Of a stretch of DNA of 32,000 nucleotides, positions 11,827 through 29,154 are shown piece after piece. Under the pieces are notes generated by a model. The model was not told the origin of the DNA. It saw only the letters and a program-made list of their open reading frames with translations, and did not search any database. Where the stretch lies: positions 92,229-124,228 of the forward strand of contig NZ_CP098519.1 of NCBI RefSeq assembly GCF_023703795.1, written 5' to 3'. This DNA comes from Haloplanus pelagicus. Its GTDB lineage: Archaea; Halobacteriota; Halobacteria; Halobacteriales; Haloferacaceae. The position numbers were made by a program, and so were the translations under genes. Position 1 is the stretch's first letter. Each line of letters begins with the position of its first letter.

Positions 11827-12807
11827 ATGAGTGACTCAGCGGCAGGCGTCCTCCTTGGTCTCGCCTGCGGTGATGCCCTCGGCCGTCCGGTAGAGTTCCA
11901 GCAAACAACCTCCATCCAGCGCCGGCACGGCTGCGTTACGGAGATGCTGGCCAACGGGACCCATGGCCAACCGGCTGGCACGATCACGGACGACACCGAG
12001 ATGGCGCTGTGTGTGGCTCGAAGCCTCGTTGGTTCGGGCCACTTCGACCCCGTTGACGTCGCAGACCGATTCGTTGAGTGGTATCAATCAGACCCGTTTG
12101 ACATTGGACTACTCACTAGCACAGTCCTCAGGCGACTCCGAGATGGTGACGCGTGGGATGAGGCTGGGATCGATGAGTGGAAACACCTCCCAGAGGGATC
12201 CAATGCGGGCAACGGCAGCGTCATGCGATGTGCCCCGTACGGGATCGCGTTTGCTGGTGAGTCCGATGTACTCGTGACTGCGAGTCGTGTGTCGTCGGCG
12301 ATCACGCATGCCGACCCGCGCTGCCAATGGGGATGTGTGATTCTAAACGCGACGCTCGCTGGCCTGCTCGGGGGTAAGGAACAGCCGCTTGCGTCCGCGC
12401 TTGAACTCGCAGTGAATGCGCCTGCTGAACTCCGGAGCGCGTGTGAAGCTGTTCAGGCAATTGTGGAAGGGTCTGAGTCTGCGGCGGATCTTGAACTCGC
12501 TAATTCGGGCTATGTCGTCACAACACTTCAGGCGGGGCTCTATCACGGATTGACTGCTGAGAGTGCGGAGGACGCCATCGTCGATGCGGTGATGCTGGGT
12601 GGTGATACAGATACGATTGCGGCCGTTGCTGGGGCTGTTGCGGGGGCACGGTTTGGCGCGTCCGGGCTTCCCGATCGTTGGTTCCGGGCAATCGATGAGA
12701 CGGCCGAACTCACAAAGTTAGGCCAGCAACTCGATACGATGGATTTGTCGCTTCCTGAGTCAGTCGCTGAGAATCTTTCGAGTAGCCAATTTGATTTACA
12801 AGCCTAA
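11827..12807 (+). CDS. ADP-ribosylglycohydrolase family protein (DraG/ARH)
   Basis: GVLLGLACGDALGRPVEF, GTITDDTEMALCVA, SNAGNGSVMRCAPYG-like (NAGNGSVMRCAPYG), GGDTDTIAAVAGAVAGARFG. Confidence 0.93.
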   Translation: MSDSAAGVLLGLACGDALGRPVEFQQTTSIQRRHGCVTEMLANGTHGQPAGTITDDTEMALCVARSLVGSGHFDPVDVADRFVEWYQSDPFDIGLLTSTVLRRLRDGDAWDEAGIDEWKHLPEGSNAGNGSVMRCAPYGIAFAGESDVLVTASRVSSAITHADPRCQWGCVILNATLAGLLGGKEQPLASALELAVNAPAELRSACEAVQAIVEGSESAADLELANSGYVVTTLQAGLYHGLTAESAEDAIVDAVMLGGDTDTIAAVAGAVAGARFGASGLPDRWFRAIDETAELTKLGQQLDTMDLSLPESVAENLSSSQFDLQA

Positions 12808-13155: not shown

Positions 13156-13845
13156 CTACGAGAACTCCGGCCGTTCCGCGTACGCAATCGGATCGCGTGA
13201 CTCGGCATTCCGGAATGCTTCGAGTCGGAACGCACACGCATCACACGTTCCGCACGCCGGTTCCTCATCCCGGTAACACGACCACGTCATGTCGTATGGC
13301 ACACCGAGCTCCAACCCCCGCTCGGCGATCTCCGTTTTCGACCATTCGACGAACGGCGCTTTCAACTCGATCTGTGTCTCCGGTTTTGTCCCGACATCGA
13401 TCACGTTCTGAAAAGCGTCGAAAAACGCCGGGCGACAGTCAGGGTATCCGGAGAAATCCTCCGAATGTGCGCCGATAAACAGCGCCTCTGAATCAGTCGC
13501 CTCCGCGTACGACGTCGCCATCGACAACAAATTCGCATTCCGGAAGGGGACGTACGATGTCGGAATGTCGTCACTCTCAAGATCTGCGTCGGCCACGTCC
13601 ATCTCCTCGTCGGTCAAACTCGACGCACCGATCTGGGAGAGATGTCCCGTTTCGATATGGAGGAAGTCAGCCGCATCAACTTCCTCCGCGAGCGCTTTCG
13701 CACACTCGTACTCCTTGTCTTCGGTGCGCTGACCGTACGACGTATGGAGGAAGTACGGCTCGTAGCCCTGCACGATCGCCTCGTAGACAGCCGTCGCACT
13801 ATCCATCCCACCAGACACCAGAATCACCGCGCTTTTGTTGCTCAT
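13156..13845 (-). CDS. queC: 7-cyano-7-deazaguanine (preQ0) synthase
   Basis: AVILVSGGMDSATAVYEA (PP-loop), SYGQRT, VPFRNANLLSMATSYAEA, SCYRDEEPACGTCDACAFRLEAF (zinc cysteines). Confidence 0.96.
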   Translation of the reverse strand: MSNKSAVILVSGGMDSATAVYEAIVQGYEPYFLHTSYGQRTEDKEYECAKALAEEVDAADFLHIETGHLSQIGASSLTDEEMDVADADLESDDIPTSYVPFRNANLLSMATSYAEATDSEALFIGAHSEDFSGYPDCRPAFFDAFQNVIDVGTKPETQIELKAPFVEWSKTEIAERGLELGVPYDMTWSCYRDEEPACGTCDACAFRLEAFRNAESRDPIAYAERPEFS

Positions 13846-13939
13846 ATCTGCTTGGTTGCGTCGAATCGATTATCGCTCTGTTCACCACACCGCACTCGCG
13901 GCACCGTGCTCTTCTGACCGGCCTCTAAGGATAACGTGC

Positions 13940-14716
13940 TCATGTCCCCGGTGCGTCGTTCCATAGGTCCACGTGGAGTCGCGGCGTGTACCGGTAGCCG
14001 TACTCCATCGCCAGCTCGGCGACCTCGCTTCGCGTCCCGTCGAGTTGCTCGCGCGTCATGCCCTCCGGCATCAACAACACGTCATCATCGGCGACAGTCG
14101 TCGCCGTCGCTTTTTGTACTCGGTCAACCAGGTCCGTAATCTCCGGGAGGTCCGTCTCGTCGGTCACGACGAACTTGAGTTGCGTCTCGTACGTATCGAC
14201 CATCTGGGACAACGCATCCATGTCAATTCGATTCTGTTCGTGTTTCTCCTCCCACTCGCCCTCCCCCTTCGGGTCACGATCGGGTGTTGGCGTGCTGCTC
14301 GCCAGCTTCGGGCTGATACTCGCTAAATCGATCGGCGCGTCCCGGTAGATTGTCCCGTTCGTTTCCACCGTCGTGTGATAGCCGTCTGCGGCGAGTCGTT
14401 CGAGGAGTTCGACTGACTCCTCATGGATGAGTGGCTCCCCACCTGTGAGGACGACGTGGCCAGCCTGTTCGTGGGACTGTACTTCTTCCACGATCGAGTC
14501 GATGTCGCGCCACGCCCCGGTCGGCTCCCACGAGGTATGGTACGAATCACAGAACCAACACCGCAGATTACATCCAGAGGTCCGTACGAAGACGGAGGGG
14601 ACGCCTGCGAGCGTTCCCTCGCCCTGTAACGAGTAGAACACCTCGTTGATCGGGAGGCCCTCACCAGTCGCGTCAGCGTCTGTTGCGGGCTCTTCGATAT
14701 CACTAGCAACCGGCAT
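13940..14716 (-). CDS. queE: 7-carboxy-7-deazaguanine synthase (radical SAM)
   Basis: NEVFYSLQGEGTLAGVPSVFVRTSGCNLRCWFCDSYHTSWEP, HVVLTGGEPLIH, TTVETNGT, ISPKL. Confidence 0.96.
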   Translation of the reverse strand: MPVASDIEEPATDADATGEGLPINEVFYSLQGEGTLAGVPSVFVRTSGCNLRCWFCDSYHTSWEPTGAWRDIDSIVEEVQSHEQAGHVVLTGGEPLIHEESVELLERLAADGYHTTVETNGTIYRDAPIDLASISPKLASSTPTPDRDPKGEGEWEEKHEQNRIDMDALSQMVDTYETQLKFVVTDETDLPEITDLVDRVQKATATTVADDDVLLMPEGMTREQLDGTRSEVAELAMEYGYRYTPRLHVDLWNDAPGT

Positions 14717-15177
14717 CAGTACGACGCACAGAGCTCCTTGGTCTCGCTCACCGACACCGACACATCCGTCACGGTATCCGGGAACTCATCGAGCATGCGT
14801 TGTTCGAGGAGGAGGCTCATCACCTCCGCCGTCGGCGGGTGTTCCAACACCACGAGCGCGTCGCCGTCACCAGACGCCTCGAACGCATCTACAAGCGGGT
14901 CGCCCTCCTCAACCAGGAACCGGTGATCCCACGCGTCGATGACGTCCGTGACGTCGCCTTTGTCGACGACCCAGCCCTCCTCGGTGAGTTCACCGGTCAC
15001 TTCGACAGTGATCTCGTAGTTGTGGCCGTGTGGCCGCGAACACTTCCCGTCGTGATGTAGGATTCGATGACCCGAACTGATCCGGATTGGATTGTCGCCT
15101 CCGATTTTGAGTGTCCGCTGGCCTGCCTCGACCAAGTTTTCAGCCGTAGAATCATCTTGTGATATGCTTTGAGACAT
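14716..15177 (-). CDS. queD: 6-carboxy-tetrahydropterin synthase
   Basis: FSSGHRI-like ISSGHRILHHDGKCSRPHGHNYEITVEVTGEL, GWVVDKGDVTDVIDAWDHRFLVEEGDPL, HPPTAEVMS. Overlaps queE start (TGATG). Confidence 0.94.
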   Translation of the reverse strand: MSQSISQDDSTAENLVEAGQRTLKIGGDNPIRISSGHRILHHDGKCSRPHGHNYEITVEVTGELTEEGWVVDKGDVTDVIDAWDHRFLVEEGDPLVDAFEASGDGDALVVLEHPPTAEVMSLLLEQRMLDEFPDTVTDVSVSVSETKELCASY

Positions 15178-15259: not shown

Positions 15260-15424
15260 ATGAACACTTATTCACAAAGTATGGCACCTTTCACACGGAT
15301 TTTCGCCGGATTGGTGAGAGACACTTTTCCGCCAAATGTTGAGGAGCTCTCGACCGATCAAGAAGATGAACAACACCATCCAAGATTACAAATATACACT
15401 ACGATAAGAATAGACAATGAGTAA
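15260..15424 (+). CDS. Candidate small protein (54 aa)
   Basis: Open frame below the 60-aa cutoff of the track: MNTYSQSMAPFTRIFAGLVRDTFPPNVEELSTDQEDEQHHPRLQIYTTIRIDNE*. Its stop overlaps the next ORF's ATG (aATGAGTAA at 15416-15424). Confidence 0.4.
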   Translation: MNTYSQSMAPFTRIFAGLVRDTFPPNVEELSTDQEDEQHHPRLQIYTTIRIDNE

Positions 15425-15788
15425 ACGAGAAGATCAACGAGAGAGTAGCTTGTCCTTGAGTGAAATAGACTCCACGCGAGCCCCTGATGAAAAGCAAATG
15501 GACGGCAAATCTGGAGAGATGCTGTATCAGCTCAAATTTCACAAAAGGCAGGGAGCAACCACCGAGGTGGGAAAAGTAACTGAAATCGGATCGTTAGAGG
15601 ATTCGCCTCCCGTTGATCTTCAGGCACTTCAGACAGATACCTATACTCACTATGCTATCTTCCGTTTGAAAGATCGATCAACGACACTGATTGTACAAGA
15701 CGAATCTGGAAATACGCACAAAGCGCTTTCACTTGGCAAAGATACTGTGAAAGTACCTTACAAAGTGAGTATTACCATCCAATCTTAG
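15417..15788 (+). CDS. Hypothetical protein at island start
   Basis: ORF MSKREDQRESSLSLSEIDSTRAPDEKQMDGKSGEMLYQLKFHKRQGATTEVGKVTEIGS...; no recognised family. Confidence 0.6.
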   Translation: MSKREDQRESSLSLSEIDSTRAPDEKQMDGKSGEMLYQLKFHKRQGATTEVGKVTEIGSLEDSPPVDLQALQTDTYTHYAIFRLKDRSTTLIVQDESGNTHKALSLGKDTVKVPYKVSITIQS

Positions 15789-16137: not shown

Positions 16138-17205
16138 ATGCGACGATACCAATTCGATGACGTCGGCGAGATAGAATTCGTGGCGTCTGTCGCGCAAATC
16201 AATCGTTCTCAGCTTATCGATATCGTGGAGGACCTCGAGGAATACAACCTTGTAGAGTATGCTCTTGGTCGGATGATGTTTTGTCCGCTTACCTCCTCAG
16301 AGATTGCGGTTGATTATCTTGAATCGCTTTCATCGTCCTACGATCTCACATTCGCTTGTGATTCGGGAGGGTATGAGTCTCAAGTCAACGATGAATATAC
16401 GATGAAAGACATCTATACATTTGATCGAGAATACTACTTGTCGACAGACTGGCCTGACGAATTAGTTCTGCCCGACCAAGTGCCCGTAGAAGGAGACGAC
16501 GAGGCAACGATAGAGCAGAAGGTCCAGGACACAATCTCTCTCTCTCGAATGCTCTATAATGAACTACCAAGCGACAAGCAAGAGCGCGCAGTGCCAGTAA
16601 TCCAGGGGCATACTAAACAACAAATCGTTGAGTGTCTCGATGTTTATAGGAAGTTTGACAAAATAAATAAAATTGGGTTTGGGAGCTTTGGTACCGGAGG
16701 AGTAAATGGGGGTGTGAATTATTTGAATGAGGAGAATCTCGAACTACTACAATTCGTTGTGAAAGAGGCTCGGAAGTATGATCTAGACGTCCATGCATTC
16801 GGAATTGGCGGGCCAACTTCAATTCCTATCCTATATCAGTGTGGTGTTGATACGTTCGATTCGACTGGCTGGATACGATCTGGGGGTTATGGAAATATCT
16901 TTTTCCCATTTAAAAGTCGGCTTAATGTTACGCACCTTCGCAATCGGTCCGGTCCTACAGTCTTCCGAGAGGAATTGAGGGAAATAAAAGAGGAGACCGG
17001 ACATGAATGTCCGTACTGTCGGTCATTCGAATCCCTGCAAAACAGTCGTCAACATCGAATTTTACATAATCTTATTGTCATGCGTGAGATGACAGACATG
17101 ATCCTAGAATATTCGCTCGAAGAACTCATCGAGATGATGAATCCTAACTCAAAGTATACCGGCTACCTAAAGAAATTTACATCAACCGAGTCGGTCCGGA
17201 ACTGA
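16138..17205 (+). CDS. dpdA: DpdA-like TGT-fold transglycosylase (predicted 7-deazaguanine insertion into DNA)
   Basis: TGT-type motifs: TFACDSGGYES (D75, cf. TDSGGFQ), VPVIQGHT (cf. IVQG), FGIGGPTSIPILYQCGVDTFDSTGWIRSGGYGNIFFPF (D241, cf. GxDMFDCVxPTRxARxG.LF), and HECPYC...H zinc-like region. Only 355 aa, with no PUA or ArcTGT C-terminal domains. Confidence 0.85.
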   Translation: MRRYQFDDVGEIEFVASVAQINRSQLIDIVEDLEEYNLVEYALGRMMFCPLTSSEIAVDYLESLSSSYDLTFACDSGGYESQVNDEYTMKDIYTFDREYYLSTDWPDELVLPDQVPVEGDDEATIEQKVQDTISLSRMLYNELPSDKQERAVPVIQGHTKQQIVECLDVYRKFDKINKIGFGSFGTGGVNGGVNYLNEENLELLQFVVKEARKYDLDVHAFGIGGPTSIPILYQCGVDTFDSTGWIRSGGYGNIFFPFKSRLNVTHLRNRSGPTVFREELREIKEETGHECPYCRSFESLQNSRQHRILHNLIVMREMTDMILEYSLEELIEMMNPNSKYTGYLKKFTSTESVRN

Positions 17206-17252
17206 TTATCTAGAGGTAGATATTTGTTTGAGGTGTCTAATTGAATGACGAG

Positions 17253-18101
17253 ATGAGTCATTACACTTCAAAATTCCATATTAGTGACCCTGGCCCACAG
17301 GAGTTGTATGAATATTTGGATACTGTGGAGGCAACATCGCCATCATCGAATCCAGAACTTCTTGAATCGGCCAGAGACCTTGGCCACTCAATCGGGAGCA
17401 AGGAGAAATCTACAGAAGGTTCGGTGCTTGGCCGGCTCGGGATTGTAGATCCCACCGATCAATTTCAGTTTACTGAACTCGGTGACTCCCTGGTCGATAT
17501 CATGTATAGGGATCGGAACCTGTTTAATACGGTACTTCATTTTCTTTATTACTCTGCTTTTGAGAGATACCCAGACAGATATGTATTTATGTCGTATACA
17601 TACAGAGAGATGACCAACTATCTCTATGATAATTCCCCGTTTAGCACTTTTCGGGGAGAGCGTGGAACAATTGTTGGTGAAGTCACCGAATTAGCAGAAC
17701 AGAGTCCAGATGTCGACGTTTCCAAGACACGAAGCGGCGTGTCACTTAGTACAAAGAGTTTCAATAATTATCTGCAGTATCTTGCGGAACTATCCCCCGA
17801 GGTGCTAGTGGAGGATGACTCTGGGAGTCCCGGATTCGAGCGACGTGCGTTCTGCCCTCCGGAACTTATGATCTTGGCCGTGGATCATATCTATAAGCAA
17901 AACGAGACAGATTATGAGACGCTCCTCAGAGTGACAGATGATACCAAAGTTCGAATTCAACAGATGTGCCTCCTCTCTGATGATGGGTTCGATGAGGTAA
18001 CCGAGTACGCTGAACAGGCGTATCCATTCTTCTCAAAGAAACATGACTTTGGTCTCAACCTTCGATTAGACCGAGAAGTAACTCTTGATGACCTCCAATA
18101 G
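17253..18101 (+). CDS. DUF4007-like / winged-helix protein, possible defence regulator or adaptor
   Basis: MSHYTSKFHISDPGPQELYEYLDTVEATSPSS...VLGRLGIVDPTDQFQFTELGDSLVDIMYRDRNLFNTVLHFLYYSAFE, similar in layout to DUF4007 proteins. Track ORF starts at TTG 17241; ATG 17253 is preferred. Confidence 0.55.
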   Translation: MSHYTSKFHISDPGPQELYEYLDTVEATSPSSNPELLESARDLGHSIGSKEKSTEGSVLGRLGIVDPTDQFQFTELGDSLVDIMYRDRNLFNTVLHFLYYSAFERYPDRYVFMSYTYREMTNYLYDNSPFSTFRGERGTIVGEVTELAEQSPDVDVSKTRSGVSLSTKSFNNYLQYLAELSPEVLVEDDSGSPGFERRAFCPPELMILAVDHIYKQNETDYETLLRVTDDTKVRIQQMCLLSDDGFDEVTEYAEQAYPFFSKKHDFGLNLRLDREVTLDDLQ

Positions 18102-18102
18102 C

Positions 18103-18504
18103 ATGTCGTCACCTGTTGCAGAACTACTACAGAAATCTAATGAGGCAAAGCGGCGACTACAAGATGACCTCCTGACCGACGATCAGATCGCAGTACGCTC
18201 GAAACTTTTGGAATTTGCTGATCAGGACGGCGGTCATTACAACTTGTATGGAGCAAGAGGTGTTGGCAAGACCACGCTGGCTAAATATATGATGGTTCAT
18301 CAGAACGGGTGGGGATACGCTCCATGGCTACCCGTGAAAAATGCCTCAACACGAGTCCTCTTCGTCGATAATGTACCGGCAACCAGGACAGCGTCACGCA
18401 GAGCGCGTGAAATTATTGGATTTGACACTCCAGACACGGTGATTTCAGTTTCGCGCAAACCGGTTCCGGAAACAAAAGCGCGTGTTACACTCTCTGACAA
18501 CTGA
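18103..18504 (+). CDS. Minimal P-loop/AAA-like ATPase (about 133 aa)
   Basis: HYNLYGARGVGKTTLAKYMMVHQ (Walker A), STRVLFVDNVPATR (degenerate Walker B), TVISVSRKPVPET. ATG 18103 lies 1 nt after the preceding stop. Confidence 0.6.
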   Translation: MSSPVAELLQKSNEAKRRLQDDLLTDDQIAVRSKLLEFADQDGGHYNLYGARGVGKTTLAKYMMVHQNGWGYAPWLPVKNASTRVLFVDNVPATRTASRRAREIIGFDTPDTVISVSRKPVPETKARVTLSDN

Positions 18505-18591
18505 TACTTACAGGAGATATTCCCCTTCTCTACTCTCTGTCGATCATCCAATAATTTATTAACAGAGAAGTGCCAGAAGGGTATAGTTACT

Positions 18592-21500
18592 ATGGGACAG
18601 GCGAATGCGCAAAATATCGAGTCCTCTCTTCGAGAACTCAATGACACGCTGAACAAAGATGAGGGGATTGTCAATACATCAAGCGCTCACCGATTTTTAG
18701 ACCAGCCGAGCGATATCGAGACCGAATACATTGAGTACGCTCGGACTCACCTGATCCAGCCAGACATTCAACGGTTTATCGATTCGTTGACTGGAGCCCT
18801 CGAAGATGAAGATCTGAATAAATCTGTTCCTGGATACATTGTGGGCCCCTACGGGTTTGGGAAGACCAGTACAACGGGAAAAGTTTGGTACCTTCTTGAC
18901 CAGGAAGACAACTACATTACTACCCCTCCGATCTATTTCGATGAACTACAGTCAATTGTCGACGCCGTGTACGGATGGATGCGGTTCCGCTTGAGGGACC
19001 GAGAAGAGCATCTAGAAACCCTCGAACAGCGGTACCAGGCCAAAGTGACCAGTAACGTCGAAGATATTGTTGACCAAACTGGATTCGATGACAAAGATCA
19101 AACCCGGGAAGAGTTCGAGCGACTAATCGAGTCGGGATCGATTGATATCGAATTCTCGGTCCAACACGTTCTGGATTTCCTTTCTGAATGTAATCAGATC
19201 GCAAAAGACGCTGGGTACAAAGGCCTCGTCGTTATTGCCGACGAACTTCAGCAGTTCATATCCAGTCACTCGTCTGACAAAGAAGCATACTCTAAGCTAC
19301 GTGATATTGCAAAAAGCACAGCCCTCGGCCTGAACGAAGGCGACGGCTTGGGTCTTCTGTTCACCATGGACGATGGTCTCCACGGAGACCTGGACGTGAA
19401 TGCAGACGATGTTCTTGCGCGGTTAGCAGAACAGAACGTTCAACTCAACTTAGCGAATGTTTACAACCGAGATTTCCCGACTAAGCTGTGGGAAAGTCTG
19501 GCTGAAACTTACGGTTTCAAGGACAGACGCTACGAAGTAATTACCGAGGATACGCTAGACGCAATTGGTCAGATCTGTGAACGTGGACCTCCTCTTTCAA
19601 ACGGCCCTCGTTCAGTTGTGGACATTCTCACGATCGCTATCGAGCACTACCTCTCTGAGTCGGAGGCGTTTGATGCTCTTGACCTCGCCAATGCGTACTA
19701 TAATGGCGTTGTCCGATTCAAAGGAGACCACATCAAAACCGCAATCACAGAGGCGATTAATTCTGATCAAATAAGTACCCCCGATCGTGAGAATTTCATC
19801 AAGCTGTGTGGGGTATTCCCTCGAGGAGTCTCAGATGACCTACTGAAGCAGTATGGGGTTCACGAGGCGAAAGAACAGGTCAAAGGAGAACTTCACGGAC
19901 AGCTCATCATCACACACGAGGAAGGGCGCACGCTCAAACGTCTTGAGCGGGAAGGAGAGGATCGTGGGATCAAAGACGAACTGTTCACACAGTTCTATCG
20001 GGATTATGACACCACAGACATCTACGATTCGAACGCTTCTGAGACGTTCCGAGAATTTGTTGTTTCGGAAGAACTCTTCCCCGCTGTTCGAGGAAAGAGT
20101 CTGAGCAGCTGGGTTACCGAACACGCCTTTGAACCCGAAACTGGAGGAGTGTACGCGGCAGTCTTTCGTGGGTCATTCAACGGGCAAGAGTACCCTGAGC
20201 GGCTTATTGAAATCCGAATGGGCACGGATGCTACATCAGTTAAATCGCCCGATGAAGGCACAGATACTGACCTCACGATTGGCTTTGCCGTTAACATGGA
20301 GAAGCAGACTGAAGTCACCCCTCACATCGAACGGGTATCTACTGACGAGGTTCTTCTACATCTAGACTTAGCTGATTCTTTCGACAGCCTCCCGAGCAAT
20401 ATCGTTATGTTGGAAGATTACATGAGTCCGGAAGATGTCAGCCCCCATCTGCTGCTCTCCTTACATCACTTCATGCGTAATTGGGAGGAGAACCAAACAG
20501 TCAATCCCAACCAGGAGACACAGTTGGAATATATCCGTGACCAGTTAGTCACGCAAAGCATTCAGAAGGCGTTTGGCCCTCCCCTGAATGGGGACGACTT
20601 CCTCGATGAATCAGGGAGTAGTCGCCGGACCGTTGATCCGTCAAAGGTCGTCGAGAAAATCTTCAACCGTGTAATCGAAGAGGTCTATCCTGATTATAAA
20701 ACTCTCTTCATCTCGGACAATTACCAGACCTTCTTAGATGACTATGAATCTCTCCTAGTAGGAAACGATCCGAATATCCGGATCTCACAAAAGCGGGGTA
20801 ATACCCCAATTGAAGGGACAAAAAGCGATATTTCCAACGCGATCGGGGTATCTAGTAACTCGACAGCAAAAACACGTCTTGATAAACAATTTGAAGATCT
20901 CGTTGACACTGAAGTCTGGCAGGGCAAGGATGCCAGGGTTCGATTGACCCTTCATCCCCTTGAGGAACTTCTTAAAGACCATATCGAGGAGCAAGAGAAG
21001 GAAACTGTCGCCGTCAGTGAGTTATATGATGTAGCCGGGGAGAAAGGGTACCGGCAGGAAGAAGTTGACTGGGCAGTCCGCCTCCTTGTTGGTCGAGATT
21101 TCATCAAGCATGATCAAAACGATGAAACGGTCGAACTGAGCGACATTGCTATCGACATCGACCAAGTCAAATCTCGGCTGGAATCACTCCGAAACACGGC
21201 TGCGGAGCTCAACGAAATCTCGAACGAGTGGAGTGAGTATGACTCGATCACTAATGAGTTGAATCGCCTTGAGGAGGAACTCAGCGGAACGACGAATGAC
21301 GACATTGAGATACTCGATGATCTTAACGCCGAGCTAGAAGAGGTAGATTCGCAGATCTCGACGCAGATCAAGGCCACAAGTGCGACCCTTCGTGAACGTG
21401 CCCGAGGAACAATAGACAGACTCAAAGGACTTTCATCCAGCAACAAGCCTCGCGATCTGAAAAAGACTGTCGAGAAGTCTAATGTTCCGTTCGGCCTCCA

Positions 21501-22683
21501 TATCAAAGACATCGAGACTGAACTATCATCCAACTTTACAAAAGCAACTACAGAGGCCGACTCTGCCCGCTCAGATCTTGATACAGATCTCGAGATTGCA
21601 TCTGGCACGGCAGCTCTGAGTGAGATTAATACTCTACAGGACTCAATTGAGGAGGCGAAAGAAATCGCTGAGCAGGTTGATGAAGAATTAGAGGATATCA
21701 AAGAGGACGCGGCTGACTACGCGGATTGGTGTCGACTTGCAAATGACATGGACGCTGCTCGTTCGGATATTGTTCAGTATGCAAATACTCATCCTGACAA
21801 CAGTGCCGCGATGTCAATCAGGGATGAGCTTACCGCTCTGATGAGTGAGATTCAGACTGAGTTCCAGAAGGGCAGTGACCACGATGACTTCCCTCAGGCA
21901 CTGCGGAATGCCGAAATGTATCGGCAGCAGTTCGAAGACCTCAAAGACCAATTCGAGGAGATAACTCAGGGGGACGAAGAGAACTTCAATTACCGGAAGA
22001 ATGTGCTTGAGAACACGCTGAAGATTGGTACTTCCGGCCACCCAAGTATCAGACAAAACTTGAGTCCTAACAATGCTGAGAAGTCACGTAATGACCTCAA
22101 GCATGAGTTCCGCCGCCAGCTGGTTGAGAACAGCGATGGAATCGAAGATGTAAAGTCCGATATCAAATCGATTGAGACCAGCATTGAGTATGCTGAGTTG
22201 TTGAATCAGGTTCCGGATGAAGCTGACCCGACTCCGGCTGATATCCGCGATCAGATAGTCGATTTCGAATCTACTATTGAAGATATCCATCAGGCTGTCA
22301 GTCAAATGGATATCACTTCGGCTATCCGACTTCCGACTGAGGGTGGCCGTTCGAACTCGTTCCCCAACACCGATGAGAAATTGAGTCTCTCGATTGACAA
22401 CCGCGAGGTGAACGTCGGCGAACGAATCGACGAAATCCGAGATTCAATTGAGGCACTCCATCAAGACGTTCGTGAGTGGCGACAGGTTACTGAGACTCCC
22501 CCAGAAGATCTTGAATATATTATGGATGAACTGGACTATCGGGATCAGTCTGACTTGGAGAGCGTCCTAATTTCAGTCTCTGAAAAGAAAGGTGACACCG
22601 ACGTTGCAGAGTTCTTTGCCGATCTGGAAACCTTATTCGAGGGGAACCACATCACGGTCTCGATCAAAAGCGAACATAGGTAA
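18592..22683 (+). CDS. BrxC/PglY-like large ATPase
   Basis: 1363 aa. VPGYIVGPYGFGKTSTTGKVWYLL (Walker A, aa 85-92), GYKGLVVIADELQQFISSH (Walker B), long C-terminal coiled-coil-like region. Directly followed by a PglZ-domain gene. Confidence 0.75.
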   Translation: MGQANAQNIESSLRELNDTLNKDEGIVNTSSAHRFLDQPSDIETEYIEYARTHLIQPDIQRFIDSLTGALEDEDLNKSVPGYIVGPYGFGKTSTTGKVWYLLDQEDNYITTPPIYFDELQSIVDAVYGWMRFRLRDREEHLETLEQRYQAKVTSNVEDIVDQTGFDDKDQTREEFERLIESGSIDIEFSVQHVLDFLSECNQIAKDAGYKGLVVIADELQQFISSHSSDKEAYSKLRDIAKSTALGLNEGDGLGLLFTMDDGLHGDLDVNADDVLARLAEQNVQLNLANVYNRDFPTKLWESLAETYGFKDRRYEVITEDTLDAIGQICERGPPLSNGPRSVVDILTIAIEHYLSESEAFDALDLANAYYNGVVRFKGDHIKTAITEAINSDQISTPDRENFIKLCGVFPRGVSDDLLKQYGVHEAKEQVKGELHGQLIITHEEGRTLKRLEREGEDRGIKDELFTQFYRDYDTTDIYDSNASETFREFVVSEELFPAVRGKSLSSWVTEHAFEPETGGVYAAVFRGSFNGQEYPERLIEIRMGTDATSVKSPDEGTDTDLTIGFAVNMEKQTEVTPHIERVSTDEVLLHLDLADSFDSLPSNIVMLEDYMSPEDVSPHLLLSLHHFMRNWEENQTVNPNQETQLEYIRDQLVTQSIQKAFGPPLNGDDFLDESGSSRRTVDPSKVVEKIFNRVIEEVYPDYKTLFISDNYQTFLDDYESLLVGNDPNIRISQKRGNTPIEGTKSDISNAIGVSSNSTAKTRLDKQFEDLVDTEVWQGKDARVRLTLHPLEELLKDHIEEQEKETVAVSELYDVAGEKGYRQEEVDWAVRLLVGRDFIKHDQNDETVELSDIAIDIDQVKSRLESLRNTAAELNEISNEWSEYDSITNELNRLEEELSGTTNDDIEILDDLNAELEEVDSQISTQIKATSATLRERARGTIDRLKGLSSSNKPRDLKKTVEKSNVPFGLHIKDIETELSSNFTKATTEADSARSDLDTDLEIASGTAALSEINTLQDSIEEAKEIAEQVDEELEDIKEDAADYADWCRLANDMDAARSDIVQYANTHPDNSAAMSIRDELTALMSEIQTEFQKGSDHDDFPQALRNAEMYRQQFEDLKDQFEEITQGDEENFNYRKNVLENTLKIGTSGHPSIRQNLSPNNAEKSRNDLKHEFRRQLVENSDGIEDVKSDIKSIETSIEYAELLNQVPDEADPTPADIRDQIVDFESTIEDIHQAVSQMDITSAIRLPTEGGRSNSFPNTDEKLSLSIDNREVNVGERIDEIRDSIEALHQDVREWRQVTETPPEDLEYIMDELDYRDQSDLESVLISVSEKKGDTDVAEFFADLETLFEGNHITVSIKSEHR

Positions 22684-22688
22684 CTCCC

Positions 22689-23864
22689 GTGTCTACCCGC
22701 ACTATTGAGTCACTGTCTGCCTTGGCTGAAGCGACACGTGACGGACCAGTTGTCGCAAATATCGGAGGGCTCGAGTCTCGAGTACTACAAAACAGGCATG
22801 GTATCGATACCCTTGAATCGCTTGAAGAGTTTTACCGCCTCTATGAGTCTCCGACTAATTTGTTTGAAACCGATGTGATCATTCGGGATCAGGGATCTAA
22901 GCCGTCCTTTGATAGGTCACTTACGCTCTACAACCCACCTTCGATAGAACAGGTCGAATACACTGGCACCGTGTACGATAGGTCGCTTAATGGACTCATA
23001 TCAGAAGGGTCGATTTCTTGGGACGATGTGGAGAGCACAACCACTTGTCAATCAGAGGTCGGCGATCTCATCACGGAGGCGGCATCTGATGTTGATGTTA
23101 TTGCGCTGGTTATTGTTGATGGCCTCTCCTATCAGGATTGGACAGACTCAGGCTATGAGGCAGAGCCAATCTATGTTGATTGCCCAACACGTACAGATTG
23201 TGGCTACCCAAATGTCGTCCGTGGGGCATCCAACGGGAAGCATCTCCAATATCGGCTTTTCAACGAGGGATATAAAACCCGGAAGGCGTTCACCTACTGG
23301 GAACGTAAGGATAACGACCTTTCTGACGAATTGCACGATGGTTTCTCCAAGAACGACGTAATCGGAAACATCCAGGACTTTGCTGATTCCATCTCATATT
23401 TACAGACCCACGATTGGTATCGACCGAAGACCTATCTCCAGTTCACTCTTACCGGTCCTGAACGTGTAGCGCACCGAATGAAGGAGGATCCTGTGATCCA
23501 GAGTGAGGTAGACGCAGTTCATCAAAAGTTGTCTGACCTCCGTGAAACAATCAGCAAAGAAACGGACTCATTCCGTATTTTCGCTGTTGCCGACCATGGT
23601 ATTCTCTGGCGGATGGATACTGACTTTGAGGCACTTGATGAAAAGTGGAAGCAGGGAATTCGTCGGGACTATGAAGACCCTCCAGCCAGCGCATCTGTTC
23701 CTGAGTCCGTTGGTGAAACATCCTTCTGGGCTGGTCAGCAATATCTCCGGCTTTATCACCCACACATATTCAATAACCTACGAAGTAACGAACCAGGAGT
23801 ACACGGTGGCTTTTCGTACCAAGAGTCCATTGTTCCGTTAATTGAATACGAGGATCTGAAATGA
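22689..23864 (+). CDS. pglZ: PglZ-domain protein (alkaline phosphatase superfamily, compact)
   Basis: GTG start 22689. VIALVIVDGLSYQDW, PTRTDCGYPNVVRGASNGK, FRIFAVADHGILW, EPGVHGGFSYQESIVPLIEYE, in PglZ order. 391 aa. Confidence 0.82.
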   Translation: MSTRTIESLSALAEATRDGPVVANIGGLESRVLQNRHGIDTLESLEEFYRLYESPTNLFETDVIIRDQGSKPSFDRSLTLYNPPSIEQVEYTGTVYDRSLNGLISEGSISWDDVESTTTCQSEVGDLITEAASDVDVIALVIVDGLSYQDWTDSGYEAEPIYVDCPTRTDCGYPNVVRGASNGKHLQYRLFNEGYKTRKAFTYWERKDNDLSDELHDGFSKNDVIGNIQDFADSISYLQTHDWYRPKTYLQFTLTGPERVAHRMKEDPVIQSEVDAVHQKLSDLRETISKETDSFRIFAVADHGILWRMDTDFEALDEKWKQGIRRDYEDPPASASVPESVGETSFWAGQQYLRLYHPHIFNNLRSNEPGVHGGFSYQESIVPLIEYEDLK

Positions 23865-25030
23865 CACAAGAAATATTCATTGGCGAGGAACGTGATAGCG
23901 GCGAGGAAACGCTTATTGACACTTCGAAGGCCCGTGCTCTCTTCGTTTGTGGGAAGCGAGGGACCGGCAAGAGCTATTCGTTGGGAAACGTCATCGAGGA
24001 GGTCAACCGAGAGATGCCCGACACAGTTCCCCTTGTTGTTGACCCGATGGGGATTTACTGGACGATGGCCGAACCAAATGACGAACAGCAAGATCTCCTC
24101 TGGGATTGGGGAATGCAGCCGACTGGGTTTGACACTACACTCCTCGTTCCGGGCGATCCAACAGAACGTTACGGACCTGAAGTCTACGATGAGATGATGC
24201 GCCGCGGTATCGAAATCGAGAGCCTGCGTCTCAATCCTTCTGACATTTCTCCCGATGGGTGGTGTGAACTCTTCGATCTCAATATAAACAAACCGATGGG
24301 TATTGCGTTGTACCGAGCTGTCCGTTCGCTAAACGAATCTCAAGACTTCTTTGACCTGGACGAGCTCATCGAAGAAGTTGAATACGACGAAAAAGCAAAC
24401 GAGCGGACTGTGGACGCTCTTGTCAATCGTCTGGAGATGGCACACGAATGGGGCATCTTTAGTGACTCATATACAGACATCTGGAACAATCTCGATCCTT
24501 CTCGGGTTAATATTCTCGACGTGAGTGTTCTCGACCCAGGGAAGTACGGTCTTCGTAATTTGGTCGTCTACGTACTGACAAAAAAAATATTTGATGAGCG
24601 ATCGAAAGCGCGCCGTCGAGAGGAACTACAGTTGTCCTCTGATATTCCGAAGGTCTGGCTATTCATCGATGAAGCACACAATTTTGCACCGTCCGGGTCG
24701 TCCTCGCTTGCGAAGGATATCTTGATTCGATGGATCAAGGAGGGACGTCAGCCGGGGCTGTCGCTCGGCATAGCAACTCAACAGCCAAGTGCTGTATCCT
24801 CAGATGTCGTGTCCCAAATGGACTTGATTTTCTGTCACAAAATCACTACTCGCACTGATATTCAGTCGCTGAACGAACTAAGTCAGGAGTACATGGGGAG
24901 TCAGCTGAAGACCTATATCAAGAAAATCGATAAAGTTGGTGAAGCAGTCTGCGTCGATGACGAAAGAGAAGTAGTAACGCAGGTTCAAATGCGACCACGT
25001 ATGAGTCAGCATGGTGGCAGCGGGGCATGA
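23861..25030 (+). CDS. HerA-like P-loop ATPase/translocase
   Basis: ARALFVCGKRGTGKSYSLGNVIEEV (Walker A), VPLVVDPMGIYWTM, VWLFIDEAHNFAPSGSSSLAKDILIRWIKEGRQPGLSLGIATQQPSAVSSDVVSQMDLIFCHKI. ATGA overlap with the pglZ stop. Confidence 0.88.
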   Translation: MTQEIFIGEERDSGEETLIDTSKARALFVCGKRGTGKSYSLGNVIEEVNREMPDTVPLVVDPMGIYWTMAEPNDEQQDLLWDWGMQPTGFDTTLLVPGDPTERYGPEVYDEMMRRGIEIESLRLNPSDISPDGWCELFDLNINKPMGIALYRAVRSLNESQDFFDLDELIEEVEYDEKANERTVDALVNRLEMAHEWGIFSDSYTDIWNNLDPSRVNILDVSVLDPGKYGLRNLVVYVLTKKIFDERSKARRREELQLSSDIPKVWLFIDEAHNFAPSGSSSLAKDILIRWIKEGRQPGLSLGIATQQPSAVSSDVVSQMDLIFCHKITTRTDIQSLNELSQEYMGSQLKTYIKKIDKVGEAVCVDDEREVVTQVQMRPRMSQHGGSGA

Positions 25031-25563
25031 CAACAAATATTCAACGATCAAACAATTCTACGGCAGTGCCAACTACAGTCGACCTCCAGATCTCTGACTT
25101 CCTTGTCAAATCAATTAGTAAAAGTGAGAGATCGGTATCAGAATTGAATTCTTTTTTTAATTCTAATCAGATCAAATCTGAACTCCATTGGTTCACTCAT
25201 CGGGACACCCTGGAACGTGCAGCGTCACGGCCTGACCGACGGTTGTTTTATTTTGCACCCCACGATGCGATCATCGGCGGACTCATGATTTGGTGTGAAT
25301 CGAGAGTGCTTGACCAAACGGAAGCACAAATACGCCTTGTTGCTGTTTCACCAGATTATCGAGGCTATGGAATCGGACAGTACTTAGTGAAAAAGGCTAT
25401 TGAATTTGCAAAAGAGCATAATAAGGAATCAATAATCGCGGACGTTGCAGCCGAAGCTCCCGCAGTACAATTCTGGGAGGCTATCGGGTTTCACAAAGTT
25501 GATTCGTACTTTACAAATGGTGGTCGAGAAATGTATCAGATGGAACGGCACCTGAGTAAGTGA
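25027..25563 (+). CDS. GNAT-family acyltransferase
   Basis: IRLVAVSPDYRGYGIGQYLVKKAIEFAKEHNKESIIADVAAEAPAVQFWEAIGFHKVDSYF. ATGA overlap with the HerA-like gene. Confidence 0.88.
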   Translation: MTTNIQRSNNSTAVPTTVDLQISDFLVKSISKSERSVSELNSFFNSNQIKSELHWFTHRDTLERAASRPDRRLFYFAPHDAIIGGLMIWCESRVLDQTEAQIRLVAVSPDYRGYGIGQYLVKKAIEFAKEHNKESIIADVAAEAPAVQFWEAIGFHKVDSYFTNGGREMYQMERHLSK

Positions 25564-25597
25564 GAGCGTTTATTAGAGGGGACCCATAGATTGTACT

Positions 25598-25996
25598 ATG
25601 TCACAGTCCTCTTCCAGTTCTGAACGAAGTTCCTTACTGGACTCTTTTGAAGCCCCGGAGACGTCAGTCGCTCAGGTGTATACGTTTGAAACAGACGAGG
25701 TAACAGCACTCTGTCCGTTCGACTTCGGAGGGCCTGATTACTATGAGTTCACTCTAAAATACGTTCCTTCCGAAGACTGTGTCGAGAGCAAGAGCCTGAA
25801 AAAGTTCCTTGAATCGTATCGTGATGTTGAGATCACTGCCGAAGGACTTGGTGCCGAGATGTATGAAGAAATCACCGAGACAATATCTCCTAAAAAAATG
25901 TACATCCGGCTCGAACAGGCACGGCGAGGTGGGATTGAAGAAACTGTTGAGTTCGGTGATATAGAATTGAAGTCCGCAAGAGAGCAGGTACAATAA
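25598..25996 (+). CDS. QueF/QueF-L-like T-fold enzyme acting on preQ0 (reductase or amidinotransferase)
   Basis: EVTALCPFDFGGPDYYEFTLKYVPSEDCVESKSLKKFLESYRD...RLEQARRGGI aligns with QueF (EFTSLCP..GQPDFA..ISYIPD..CVESKSLKLYLFSFR...RGGI). C39 and D47 match the catalytic Cys/Asp. Confidence 0.85.
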   Translation: MSQSSSSSERSSLLDSFEAPETSVAQVYTFETDEVTALCPFDFGGPDYYEFTLKYVPSEDCVESKSLKKFLESYRDVEITAEGLGAEMYEEITETISPKKMYIRLEQARRGGIEETVEFGDIELKSAREQVQ

Positions 25997-26568: not shown

Positions 26569-29154
26569 GTGCCATTTCCCCGCGCTAAATCATCCCGTCA
26601 ACTCTACGACGAAGTCAAATCGTATGACCGAGTGATTACCCCAGACGGACCGCTCGCGAGTGCCCTCAACCGCCAGCTTGATCGGTCACACCTCGGTCCG
26701 TTTGCTATACCCCCACGTCGCCTTGCGGTCGGTCGCCGGCAAGAATCTGAGGACCGCCTCGCGTTTCTCGGCATGATCGCAAATGAAGATATTTCGTGGA
26801 AACGGTGCGCCTACGCAGTCGGGAATATCCTCCAGTGTTGGGAACACCAAGGATCCCACGAGGCTATCTTCGAGTACGACGCATACATCGACGAGGCTAC
26901 CGAACGAGCTGTTGAGCGAATCGGTGACCTTGAGACGGCCTCGATGAAGCTCACAACCGACACTATCGATTCAGATCTCGATGTGGTCGTTGTCGAGCCG
27001 GAGATGCTTACAAAACTCGAACGAGCGTATCTGCCTACTGAGTACGATACGGTCAGTCTCTTTGCCGACACAGAGTTTGAGCTGCCCCCGTTTCGGATCC
27101 ATGATTCACCGACAGCGATCATCGAAACGGTGGTGAATGCGGTCACCGAAACAAACGCCGAAAACGTCGGGATCGTCCTCGATCAGGAAAGTGAGTACTC
27201 GCCGCTTATTGAGTCCGCACTCGAGGCAGCCGACATCCCGTTTTTCGGCGGACCGGGCTTTACTGATCGCAGCGAACACCGCTTGTTTCTTCATTTCCTC
27301 CGGACTGCCCACCGTGGAACTGACACTCGGATCAGCGAGATTCGGTCGCTGCTGACAGCTTTTGACTGTGATGTGGCCGACCGTGAGGCAGACAAGCGGC
27401 TCCACGAACTCGATGATGAACAATTGTCGTGGCTGATCGACTTCTGTCACGAGATCCAGGAGTACACGTTTTCGGACGCGCTCTCGGTGTTCGAACACCG
27501 CACCGACGACGTGCTTGATGCCTTTCGAACGGAGCTTGATGAGCTTGGTATCGCCGACGAGACTGTCACGGAAGCGCGCCTCGACGAACTGTCGTTCTAT
27601 CTACAGACGTATGAGGTCCCTGTTGACCGGGATAACGAAGGCGTCCTGCTCGCCGACGCAAAGTCAGCATCATACGTCGGTCGTGAGGTTGTCTTCTATC
27701 TTGGCCTCGATGACCGGTGGACGCATTCGGCACCGCGTCGTCCGTGGGTTGATCAGGATGCTCAGTTCACGCGGAATCTCAAGAGCTTCCAGTTGCTGTT
27801 ACAGAGTGGGAGTCAACAACACTATCTCGTTCAGGATGCGACCGGCGGATCACCCGTCACCCCATGTCTGTACTTCGAAGAGCTCCTCGAGCAAGAGTAT
27901 GATCGCTTCTCAGAGCTGCCGTCTACCACCCATCAACTCCGATCTGAATCACACGATGGGGCTGTATTCAACACAGAGGCAGTTGACGTGTCTTCTGAAC
28001 CAGTAGAGACGATTAGTAAGTCGAGTCTCAACACCTACGTGAACTCACCCCGAGACTACTACTTCAGCCGGATCGTCGACGGCCCAGAGAAAGACTATCT
28101 CACTGAGGGTACCCTACTCCATGACTTTGCGGAGTTCTACGTTACCCATCCAGCGGTCGTCGACGACGCGGCGCTGACAGACGTCGTTGATCTCATGCTT
28201 GATGAAGTCCGTCCCCTGATCCGCTCTGTTGATGAACAGACTCGCCGGACGGAGTACCGTCTAAGCCTCGAAACAATCGTCTCGTACCTTGATGACAACC
28301 CTCCGACAGACGGAGCGTTCCTTACGCCCTCCAGCAGTACTGAGAACGCTATTGCCGACTACTTCGGGTATGATATCGAGTCGTCGGTAACTGAACGCCG
28401 GTTTGTTGATGAGGATCGTGGTATCAACGGAATGATCGACCTTGTCCAGTCGCAAACCGAGCTGCTGGATTACAAAAGCGGGAGCGAGAACGACGCCAAT
28501 TCGATCGTCCAAGACGCCGCGATCGACGAACTCTCCAACGAACCTGACTTTCAGGCGTTGCTATATCTCACTTACTGGAGCTCACAAACGCCCGCTCAAC
28601 AGCTTTCGTTCACGTTCTTCTACGTTACTGAACTCGTCGACGACGCCATCGCCGGTGACGTCGATATCGACGACGTGCTGACGACGGTGACGTATTACCC
28701 CGGATCTCTCACAGATCACGTCCGAACAGAGGAGTTCTTCGAGTACCTTTGTGAGGAGGGGGCTAACGACTGCCAGAAGACCCTCTCGAAGATCGATTAT
28801 CAGACGTACGCTGCTCTCTTCGATGCCGCACCACTCGTCGAGACAACTGACAGCGACGAACTCATCGAGTCAGAGTTTGGCCGGACGATGATCGAACGAC
28901 TTGAGGCGGAGATTAGTGACTTCGTCTATGTAACGACGGGAAGCAAACAGGTCATGCGGGAAATCGCCCGGAAACAGAAGGGTGCGTTTTTTGAACCTGA
29001 CCTAGATGCGTTTGAGTCGTTTGTTGAAGAGCGGCTAACAGAGCTCAACCGACGTCGCACCGGCGACGAACCGTTTCCCATCGAGGGACTTGCCGGCGAG
29101 CCGAATTACCGGCGGGTAGACAATCGGGATTTGCTCTTGGAGGGTGAACAATGA
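26569..29154 (+). CDS. AddB/RexB-like PD-(D/E)XK nuclease family protein
   Basis: 861 aa. SKSSLNTYVNSPRDYYFSRIVDGPEKDYLTEGTLLHDFAEFYV and RGINGMIDLVQSQTELLDYKSGSEND (GxxDxxx...DYKSG). Overlaps the downstream UvrD-like helicase by ATGA. Confidence 0.78.
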   Translation: MPFPRAKSSRQLYDEVKSYDRVITPDGPLASALNRQLDRSHLGPFAIPPRRLAVGRRQESEDRLAFLGMIANEDISWKRCAYAVGNILQCWEHQGSHEAIFEYDAYIDEATERAVERIGDLETASMKLTTDTIDSDLDVVVVEPEMLTKLERAYLPTEYDTVSLFADTEFELPPFRIHDSPTAIIETVVNAVTETNAENVGIVLDQESEYSPLIESALEAADIPFFGGPGFTDRSEHRLFLHFLRTAHRGTDTRISEIRSLLTAFDCDVADREADKRLHELDDEQLSWLIDFCHEIQEYTFSDALSVFEHRTDDVLDAFRTELDELGIADETVTEARLDELSFYLQTYEVPVDRDNEGVLLADAKSASYVGREVVFYLGLDDRWTHSAPRRPWVDQDAQFTRNLKSFQLLLQSGSQQHYLVQDATGGSPVTPCLYFEELLEQEYDRFSELPSTTHQLRSESHDGAVFNTEAVDVSSEPVETISKSSLNTYVNSPRDYYFSRIVDGPEKDYLTEGTLLHDFAEFYVTHPAVVDDAALTDVVDLMLDEVRPLIRSVDEQTRRTEYRLSLETIVSYLDDNPPTDGAFLTPSSSTENAIADYFGYDIESSVTERRFVDEDRGINGMIDLVQSQTELLDYKSGSENDANSIVQDAAIDELSNEPDFQALLYLTYWSSQTPAQQLSFTFFYVTELVDDAIAGDVDIDDVLTTVTYYPGSLTDHVRTEEFFEYLCEEGANDCQKTLSKIDYQTYAALFDAAPLVETTDSDELIESEFGRTMIERLEAEISDFVYVTTGSKQVMREIARKQKGAFFEPDLDAFESFVEERLTELNRRRTGDEPFPIEGLAGEPNYRRVDNRDLLLEGEQ

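Follow-up and report, generated by a model that had tools for sequence, protein, structure and literature searches.

The stretch of DNA analysed here, referred to as the window, comprises 32,000 nucleotides of Haloplanus pelagicus (contig NZ_CP098519.1, positions 92,229 to 124,228) and harbours a gene island in which eight co-directional open reading frames (ORFs) span the interval 16138-25996 exactly. The ORFs encode, in this order, a transglycosylase of the TGT superfamily, a 282-aa winged helix-turn-helix (wHTH) protein, a small P-loop NTPase, a BrxC-like ATPase, a PglZ-like protein, a HerA-type translocase, a GNAT acyltransferase and the nitrile reductase QueF (Table 1). Neighbouring ORFs overlap by up to 17 nt or are separated by up to 87 nt, and the GC content is 44-49% within the array and 55-61% in the flanks. 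The island proteins are identical to RefSeq entries of H. pelagicus (Haloplanus sp. HW8-1), where they are annotated as 'hypothetical protein' with the exception of HerA, which is an 'ATP-binding protein'. The motifs are intact in every island protein whose motifs were checked (TGT, BrxC-like, PglZ, HerA, GNAT and QueF). The locus is a member of the family of the BREX-Related Capture (BRC) system, which has been predicted computationally (Nucleic Acids Res 2026;54(3):gkag035, PMC12839542; bioRxiv October 2025), and the system, which the first-pass annotation of this DNA had taken for a hybrid island and a candidate defence system, is therefore not new.

Scans of the window ORFs with hidden Markov models (HMMs) bore out the gene content that annotation had listed, namely DpdA-like (TGT), BrxC-like, PglZ and HerA-like genes, and matched QueF; no methyltransferase (PglX included), phosphoadenosine phosphosulphate (PAPS) reductase or Dnd protein was matched among the ORFs scanned. 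It had also remarked that components of the bacterial Dpd system are not seen, and no island protein gave a PADLOC or Pfam match to DpdB, DpdC or DpdD-K. HKD-SF2 helicase, CxC ABC ATPase and DndE domains were likewise not found in the island proteins by HMM scans. What it had passed over are the neighbouring queC-queE-queD genes, a 123-aa gene and the GNAT as a regular component. Island proteins at least 90% identical are common to H. pelagicus and several strains of Halorubrum ezzemoulense, which points to a recent movement of the island between the genera Haloplanus and Halorubrum. A tRNA gene and flanking direct repeats were looked for at the island borders, and neither was found.

Table 1. 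Genes of the island and its surroundings in the window, followed by two kinds of gene found in other loci. Labels L001, L002 and so on denote homologous loci collected in this analysis.
Feature	Position	Strand	Profile match or remark
Eight-ORF array	16138-25996	+	co-directional ORFs
TGT-superfamily transglycosylase, proposed DNA guanine/7-deazaguanine exchanger	16138-17205	+	Pfam TGT 1.4e-10
282-aa wHTH protein, proposed site-recognition subunit	17253-18101	+	no HMM match
Small P-loop NTPase, active BrxB/STAND-like component	18085-18504	+	Walker A/B
BrxC/PglY-family ATPase, 1363 aa, long helical C-terminal half	18592-22683	+	Pfam BrxC_BrxD 27.3 bits, cut-off 22.2
PglZ-like alkaline-phosphatase-superfamily protein (phosphodiesterase), proposed effector	22689-23864	+	PADLOC PglZ 3.9e-6
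HerA/FtsK-type translocase ATPase	23861-25030	+	Pfam DUF87 4.2e-12, PADLOC HerA 1.2e-19
GNAT acyltransferase	25027-25563	+	Pfam Acetyltransf_1 2.3e-14
Unimodular QueF (NADPH-dependent preQ0 to preQ1 nitrile reductase)	25598-25996	+	Pfam QueF 6.3e-17
queC (preQ0 synthase)	13156-13845	-	Pfam QueC 3.8e-72
queE-like radical SAM enzyme (7-carboxy-7-deazaguanine synthase)	13940-14716	-	Pfam Radical_SAM 1e-17
queD (PTPS family, 6-carboxytetrahydropterin synthase)	14716-15177	-	Pfam PTPS 4.6e-21
123-aa protein	15417-15788	+	no Pfam or NCBIfam match; recurs at island end
RNase_H_2-superfamily protein	841-1497	-	upstream of island
Mrr-type (modification-dependent, type IV) restriction endonuclease	3037-4074	-	Mrr_cat 1.2e-22
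Orc1/Cdc6 paralogue	5265-6293	-	upstream of island
ADP-ribosylglycohydrolase	11827-12807	+	upstream of island
AddB-like (PD-(D/E)XK + UvrD_C) and AddA-like (UvrD helicase + PD-(D/E)XK) pair	26569-32000	+	directly downstream of island
Sigma-70-type protein upstream of TGT	L003 2765-5269; L033 716-4024; L065 6896-9796; L014 8010-9851; L050 7086-9863; L057 7770-9902		
HGD-D (2-hydroxyacyl-CoA dehydratase-like) and BcrAD/BadFG-type activator ATPase, methanococcal	L024 7624-9452; L032 7797-9463; L041 7658-9364		

The TGT-superfamily protein retains the residues that are invariant across its family, D75 (DSGGY), D241 (FDS, aligned to D249 of the archaeosine tRNA-guanine transglycosylase, arcTGT) and the zinc site H289-x-C291-xx-C294...H310. 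An AlphaFold2 (AF2) model of the 355-aa protein (predicted local distance difference test score, pLDDT, 87.9) has the TGT fold and consists of the catalytic core alone, the PUA and C-terminal C2/C3 tRNA-binding domains being absent. The protein fails both the arcTGT equivalog TIGR00432 (23 bits, cut-off 350) and the DpdA equivalog NF041059 (23.5 bits, cut-off 200), the PADLOC DpdA model matches over a partial stretch only (1.5e-5), and arcTGT, DpdA and generic TGT models do not differ in how weakly they match it. That this is not the host tRNA enzyme agrees with the domain content and the arcTGT score, but the name DpdA used in the first-pass annotation has to be given up: by profile comparison the island TGT is neither the host arcTGT nor an orthologue of bacterial DpdA and falls in a separate TGT clade. 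Foldseek searches with the model gave about 1e-11 for tRNA TGTs and about 1e-9 for the phage DpdA classes; the fold is therefore undecisive for the substrate. When the family profile was compared with the Protein Data Bank (PDB), arcTGT alone was matched, weakly, across the FDS motif and the zinc site. Context, that is the strict linkage to DNA-binding and DNA-translocating partners and the existence of a viral copy, argues for DNA as the TGT substrate. The virus is the Thermocrinis Great Boiling Spring virus (TGBSV; L077, BK013347.1), in which a GNAT and a TGT of this clade (3953-5130) sit among genes for a sliding clamp, an SF2 helicase, a nuclease and a DNA polymerase (PolA), with no BREX-like genes accompanying the pair. 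It was the only virus found to carry this TGT clade in IMG/VR and among GenBank phages.

The gene that follows has the size, position and conservation of the BRC component labelled 'DUF4007/BrxA-like' (PMC12839542). Its ORF opens at TTG 17241, and a start at ATG 17253 agrees with the 282-aa homologues. The profile check for DUF4007 proposed in the first-pass annotation came out negative: Pfam DUF4007 did not match the 282-aa protein even at E up to 10, nor any of 31 locus homologues or of 53 distant homologues drawn from a profile search of 1.84 billion proteins, and the assignment gained no support from a PDB profile search with the family. The AF2 model of the protein (pLDDT 52) is confident only in a C-terminal winged helix. 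Between alleles the wHTH, BrxC-like and PglZ proteins share 24-32% identity (25-28% for the wHTH alone) and HerA 62-65%, and for two alleles with TGTs 43% identical the figures are 27-30% and 64%; the fast divergence of the former three is a pattern that would be expected of specificity subunits.

The small NTPase has an invariant Walker A motif (GARGVGKT) and Walker B residue (D95). It is about 30 aa shorter than its distant homologues, and the suspicion of a truncated pseudogene was rejected because a form of 137-139 aa is normal and conserved in the close clade, in L074 and in L076. The conserved Walker residues of the BrxC-like ATPase are G88/G90/K91/T92 (A) and D217/E218 (B). Pfam BrxC_BrxD was matched by 9 of 23 members of this family, and the DUF6079 HMM gave no match. 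The PglZ-like protein carries the invariant motifs D144-G-L, T169, D302-H303-G and H372-G-G. Among 31 members of its family, nine match Pfam PglZ and nine match Phosphodiest, and against PDB profiles the best matches are PglZ domains of the PorX type, with the PglZ structure 9zn5 at E=0.08. HerA has intact Walker A (GKRGTGKS) and Walker B (LFIDEAH) motifs and matches PDB HerA entries down to 1.2e-14. The CoA motif YRGYGIG is present in the GNAT, whose position varies among loci: it may lie upstream of the TGT, be fused to it in proteins of 463-564 aa, or follow HerA or the BrxC-like gene, and in one protein it is fused to a wHTH domain.

When species-representative genomes were searched with a TGT family profile, 70 loci were obtained, mainly of Chloroflexota and otherwise of Methanocaldococcus, Methanothermococcus, Poribacteria, Armatimonadota and haloarchaea, and further haloarchaeal loci were added by exact-protein look-ups. 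The arrangement recurs in about 80 loci of haloarchaea, methanococci, Chloroflexota, Poribacteria, Armatimonadota and others. The synteny of the TGT with BrxC-like, PglZ and HerA genes, which had been named beforehand as a check, therefore holds across phyla and is not due to chance. The components were counted in the 55 complete loci, those in which 8.5 kb or more follow the TGT. A wHTH protein lies beside the TGT in 54 of them, a BrxC-like protein is present in 52 and a GNAT, either next to the TGT or fused to it, also in 52; PglZ occurs in 37, HerA in 34 and the small NTPase in 38. All 37 PglZ-positive loci have the small NTPase, as compared to a single one of the 18 PglZ-negative loci. Helicase-type proteins of the SF2/SNF2 type adjoin the core in several loci without PglZ: beside one such core lies a 1784-aa protein with DEAD, Helicase_C and MZB/DUF1998 domains that resembles DrmA/B of the defence island system associated with restriction-modification (DISARM), and an SNF2 + NOV_C protein and an SNF2 helicase are found beside others.

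The natural reading of this distribution is a system of two modules, a GNAT-TGT-wHTH-BrxC writer cassette and an exchangeable effector, here made up of the small NTPase, PglZ and HerA. GNAT is an obligate partner of this TGT clade and a regular component of the system. The BrxC-like ATPase tracks the TGT and is therefore placed on the marking side, as are SspC and BrxC in phosphorothioation systems. The division of labour proposed at the outset, in which DpdA marks and BrxC, PglZ and HerA together restrict, is not supported, since the BrxC-like and wHTH proteins follow the TGT in 52-54 of the 55 loci. What survives of it is the idea of a separable effector, with the small NTPase, PglZ and HerA as the module and the BrxC-like ATPase removed from it. 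Since the small NTPase tracks PglZ and HerA and not the TGT, it is also unlikely to be the substitute for DpdB suggested in the BRC paper (PMC12839542).

The census brought variant arrangements to light as well. In some loci of Anaerolineae, GNAT-TGT precedes two wHTH-BrxC pairs in a row (about 1170 and about 1350 aa), and others lack PglZ and HerA and have DEAD+MZB/DUF1998 or SNF2+NOV_C neighbours; loci of the one or the other type are L012, L013, L017, L019, L021, L037, L048 (2-5353) and L014 (3504-7991). The gene just upstream of the TGT in bacterial loci often encodes a large protein that contains sigma-70 regions 2-4, to which repeats of the RNA polymerase alpha-CTD domain and a HARE-HTH are added in some cases (Table 1). 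L080 of Halovenus halobia (1-9853) looks like a tandem or hybrid arrangement, in which HerA-GNAT is followed by a second set of wHTH-like, NTPase and BrxC genes with an 813-aa PglZ, and then by QueF.

In haloarchaea the system has a companion. QueF, which converts 7-cyano-7-deazaguanine (preQ0) to 7-aminomethyl-7-deazaguanine (preQ1), was found in 13 of 13 haloarchaeal contexts with usable flanks, among them the window, L001, L002, L071 (two copies), L072, L073, L074, L076, L079, L080, L081 and L082, and, even with a sensitive profile, in none of 68 other loci. A reverse search starting from QueF led back to the system in every context that was read. The window copy scores 81.9 bits against TIGR03139, slightly below the cut-off of 86.9, and has Cys39, the NADPH motif (ESKSLKKF) and the Glu aligned to E97 of Bacillus subtilis; its motif deviates once, with K at position 7, from the reference E(S/L)K(S/A)hK(L/Y)(Y/F/W). 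Haloarchaeal QueF falls into two lineages that are 30% identical and differ in their position and orientation at the islands. Neither lineage has lost the Cys, the NADPH motif or the Glu, and both are therefore genuine nitrile reductases and not amidinotransferases of the QueF-L type. Halovivax cerinus (L071) has both lineages (8461-8847 and 9576-10004) beside one island.

The window has queC, queE and queD on the opposite strand directly upstream of the island (13156-15177), at host-like GC; queC is thus a neighbouring supply gene outside the low-GC island. The queE-like protein is 93% identical to an island-adjacent homologue in Halorubrum sp. SY-15 (L002). Genes for preQ0 synthesis adjoin the island in seven haloarchaeal contexts, including the window, L002, L074, L076, L079 and L081, and they do so in both orientations and also beside a 43%-identical allele (L002). 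In L079 the system, QueF, a 124-aa gene, queD, queE, folE and queC follow one another on one strand. Homologues of the window's 123-aa protein (37-77% identity) are encoded no more than about 2 kb from the island in L002, L071, L072 and L074, and L079 and L081 have 124-aa genes at this same island end; the 123-aa protein may have a regulatory or accessory function in the haloarchaeal form of the system. It is established that preQ0 serves archaea for archaeosine and that they need no preQ1, and the presence of an island-borne QueF in organisms without this need suggests that the haloarchaeal mark is derived from preQ1. The corresponding deoxynucleoside, dPreQ1, or a derivative of it, is the more likely mark in haloarchaea, rather than dPreQ0.

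Taken together, the island is probably a restriction-modification-like defence of the BRC type with two modules and a 7-deazaguanine as self-mark. The proposal of such a mark was made in the first-pass annotation and remains the best reading, because the TGT is not the host tRNA enzyme, is syntenic with the other components, is catalytically intact and is tied to QueF and preQ0 genes; it is not a new proposal, the same having been put forward for BRC (PMC12839542). We infer DNA as the substrate, a preQ1-derived base, its meaning as 'self' and the roles of PglZ and HerA. The marking module would then comprise QueF, GNAT, the TGT, the 282-aa wHTH protein and the BrxC-like ATPase. The adjacent host queD, queE and queC would supply preQ0, the island QueF would convert it to preQ1, and the TGT-like enzyme would swap guanine in host DNA for a 7-deazaguanine of the preQ1 type. 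The wHTH protein may guide the TGT to its sites and the BrxC-like ATPase may power it, roles that are modelled on SspB/SspC with SspD and on BrxP/BrxC of type-4 BREX (Bacteriophage Exclusion). The GNAT could modify the base, the DNA or a partner protein; acylation of the aminomethyl group of preQ1 would parallel the formyl- and methyl-dPreQ1 that phage DNA carries. DNA without the mark would be acted upon by the effector module of small NTPase, PglZ and HerA.

Several observations weigh against this reading. The TGT clade is equally distant from bacterial DpdA and from tRNA TGTs, so that DNA as the substrate is deduced from context alone. The GFGSF-x-T-x-G motif and other presumed base-pocket residues of the TGT are invariant in all lineages, which argues for one common substrate; the inserted base may be preQ0 everywhere, and QueF may then have another role. 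Genes for preQ0 synthesis are not adjacent in 6 of the 13 haloarchaeal loci, and the BrxC-like, PglZ and wHTH assignments rest on weak HMM scores. Literature searches found no experimental paper on the system. Finally, three methanococcal islands have no QueF and instead carry an HGD-D protein with a BcrAD-type ATPase (Table 1). The homology among these islands starts exactly at this pair, just upstream of GNAT-TGT, and stops at HerA (in L041 at the end of the locus sequence); beginning where it does, it shows that the pair belongs to the methanococcal island. HGD-D/BcrAD as an alternative tailoring enzyme or as a supplier of acyl-CoA for the GNAT is speculation.

Other roles for the base have to be considered. 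A 7-deazaguanine in host DNA could protect it from other nucleases or act epigenetically, not as 'self' for PglZ and HerA, which together with the NTPase would form an independent 'capture' defence. This would fit the occurrence of GNAT-TGT-wHTH-BrxC without PglZ/HerA in 18 of the 55 loci, the GNAT-TGT pair standing alone in a virus, and the report of HerA in all BRC loci and of TGT/GNAT in a subset only (PMC12839542). Such an uncoupling is nevertheless unlikely: where PglZ and HerA are present they form part of one compact array in which stop codons overlap with the start codons that follow, and the PglZ-less loci examined have other candidate restriction proteins, as would fit a mark that is read by an effector. 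We consider it quite improbable that the TGT targets the DNA of the invader, exchanging or stripping viral 7-deazaguanines and thereby marking or exposing the DNA for PglZ/HerA. Targets exist, as haloviruses like HVTV-1 have dPreQ1 at about 30% of their G positions and the Druskaviridae encode a 7-deazaguanine pathway, and enzymes that defend against 7-deazaguanine DNA, such as Dag glycosylases, are known. A biosynthetic QueF with adjacent preQ0 genes suggests, on the contrary, the supply of a base and not its removal, and the system also occurs in lineages where viruses of this kind are not known.

It could also be asked whether TGT, QueF and GNAT work on tRNA or another RNA, for example by forming a queuosine-like base in the tRNA of an archaeon, and are mere neighbours of a BREX-like system. 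tRNA-guanine transglycosylases are the best Foldseek matches of the TGT, and the lack of a preference among the arcTGT, DpdA and generic TGT models, all of which match weakly, would be compatible with this. The absence of PUA and C2/C3 domains from a 355-aa model that is all catalytic core, the strict linkage to wHTH and BrxC-like genes across phyla, the GNAT fusions to the TGT and to a wHTH protein, and the viral TGT copy among replication genes speak against an RNA substrate and make it highly improbable. We therefore retain a 7-deazaguanine self-mark in host DNA as the preferred explanation. An extended version of it is less probable: the haloarchaeal island would write dPreQ1 or GNAT-acylated dPreQ1, a base so far unreported from cellular genomes, at sites chosen by the wHTH and BrxC-like proteins. 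The writer would be portable, with PglZ/HerA, DISARM-like or SNF2 effectors according to lineage, and archaea without a host QueF would bring tailoring enzymes of their own, two independent QueF lineages in haloarchaea and HGD-D/BcrAD in methanococci.

If true, a self-mark of this kind would make this the first archaeal chromosome known to be marked with a 7-deazaguanine, and it would be the first in a BREX-like system to consist of a swapped base and not of a methyl group or a phosphorothioate. Since haloviruses such as HVTV-1 carry dPreQ1, the chemistry may be common to host and virus, and with many haloarchaeal viruses containing dPreQ1, a host that relies on it for 'self' would offer a directly testable mimicry arms race. 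Good genetics in haloarchaea and a named species make the locus a good experimental target, and the QueF/preQ0 linkage indicates which nucleosides to expect.

The surroundings of the island hold further genes (Table 1). The Mrr-type gene sits in a separate low-GC patch of about 40% GC in the same window. The region upstream, with its Orc1/Cdc6, RNase_H_2 and ADP-ribosylglycohydrolase genes, could represent a longer segment that is variable or mobile. The pair of AddB-like and AddA-like genes directly downstream is found next to the islands of L079 and L082 too, and not far from that of L002; other genera lack the pair, which therefore probably belongs to the local surroundings rather than to the system.

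With regard to known systems, the island stands apart from canonical BREX of types 1-6, for which a PglX methyltransferase or a BrxP PAPS reductase together with BrxC and PglZ is the criterion; neither a methyltransferase nor a PAPS reductase was matched among the window ORFs scanned. Closer is the set formed by type-4 BREX (BrxP-BrxC-PglZ-BrxL) and SspABCD, whose layout it repeats: a modification enzyme (here predicted), a DNA-binding protein of the DUF4007 type or, in the window, the wHTH protein in its place, an ATPase of the BrxC/SspC type and PglZ. The modification enzyme of the window is, however, a transglycosylase and not a phosphorothioation enzyme of the PAPS-reductase type, HerA stands in the place of BrxL, and the wHTH protein has no DUF4007 HMM match. 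The archaeal DndCDEA-PbeABCD system resembles the predicted one as a haloarchaeal defence with a non-methyl DNA modification as self-mark, but none of its components is homologous to the island. The analogy drawn with it at first does not extend to the proteins, and PbeABCD was rejected as a relative of DUF4007/BrxC/PglZ/HerA on its published domain make-up: PbeA is an HKD nuclease-SF2 helicase, PbeC a CxC ABC ATPase and PbeD a DndE protein, with a small protein as the remaining member.

The bacterial Dpd system (dpdA-dpdK), described as a restriction-modification system based on dPreQ0 and dADG in the work of Thiaville 2016 and Yuan 2018 as cited in PMC12839542, has in common with the window a TGT-superfamily enzyme, the help of an ATPase, a feed from the preQ0 pathway and a logic of self-marking plus restriction, which on the side of the window is predicted. 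It differs in that the window has no DpdB, DpdC or DpdD-K helicases and nucleases and has QueF and GNAT as tailoring enzymes. dPreQ1 has been measured in viruses that have DpdA and QueF (HVTV-1, Dp-1 and Cellulophaga phages). As in these, a canonical QueF lies beside a transglycosylase in the window, and it is 33-40% identical to phage QueFs. The viral genes serve anti-restriction, whereas those of the window belong to a cellular BREX-like island, and the window TGT is by sequence outside the DpdA1-4 classes, TGBSV being the sole viral match.

The closest relative is BRC itself, described in the one paper with this architecture that a full-text search brought up, where it was reported in 45 taxa, three archaeal classes among them, with PglZ, a DUF6079/BrxC-like ATPase, a STAND NTPase, DUF4007, HerA/FtsK, GNAT and TGT as components (PMC12839542). 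Counterparts of all seven lie in the window in the usual order, as TGT, the wHTH protein in the place of DUF4007, STAND-like NTPase, BrxC-like/DUF6079 ATPase, PglZ, HerA and GNAT. Haloarchaeal members are contained in the supplementary alignments of that work, including the PglZ of Halorubrum ezzemoulense (WP_271955572.1), with which the window PglZ shares a 90%-identity cluster, so that a near-identical allele had already been part of the published data. GNAT and TGT were proposed there as possibly setting a self/non-self mark, 'perhaps restricted to dPreQ0 alone', and QueF and adjacent preQ0 genes, both present in the window, are not mentioned. Viewed from the TGT side, GNAT, wHTH and BrxC-like proteins are near-universal and PglZ and HerA optional, in difference to the published picture. 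What the present analysis adds to the description of BRC is thus the structure of two modules, the reassignment of the BrxC-like ATPase and the small NTPase between them, the universal partnership of GNAT with this TGT clade, and the linkage of the haloarchaeal system to QueF and preQ0 synthesis.

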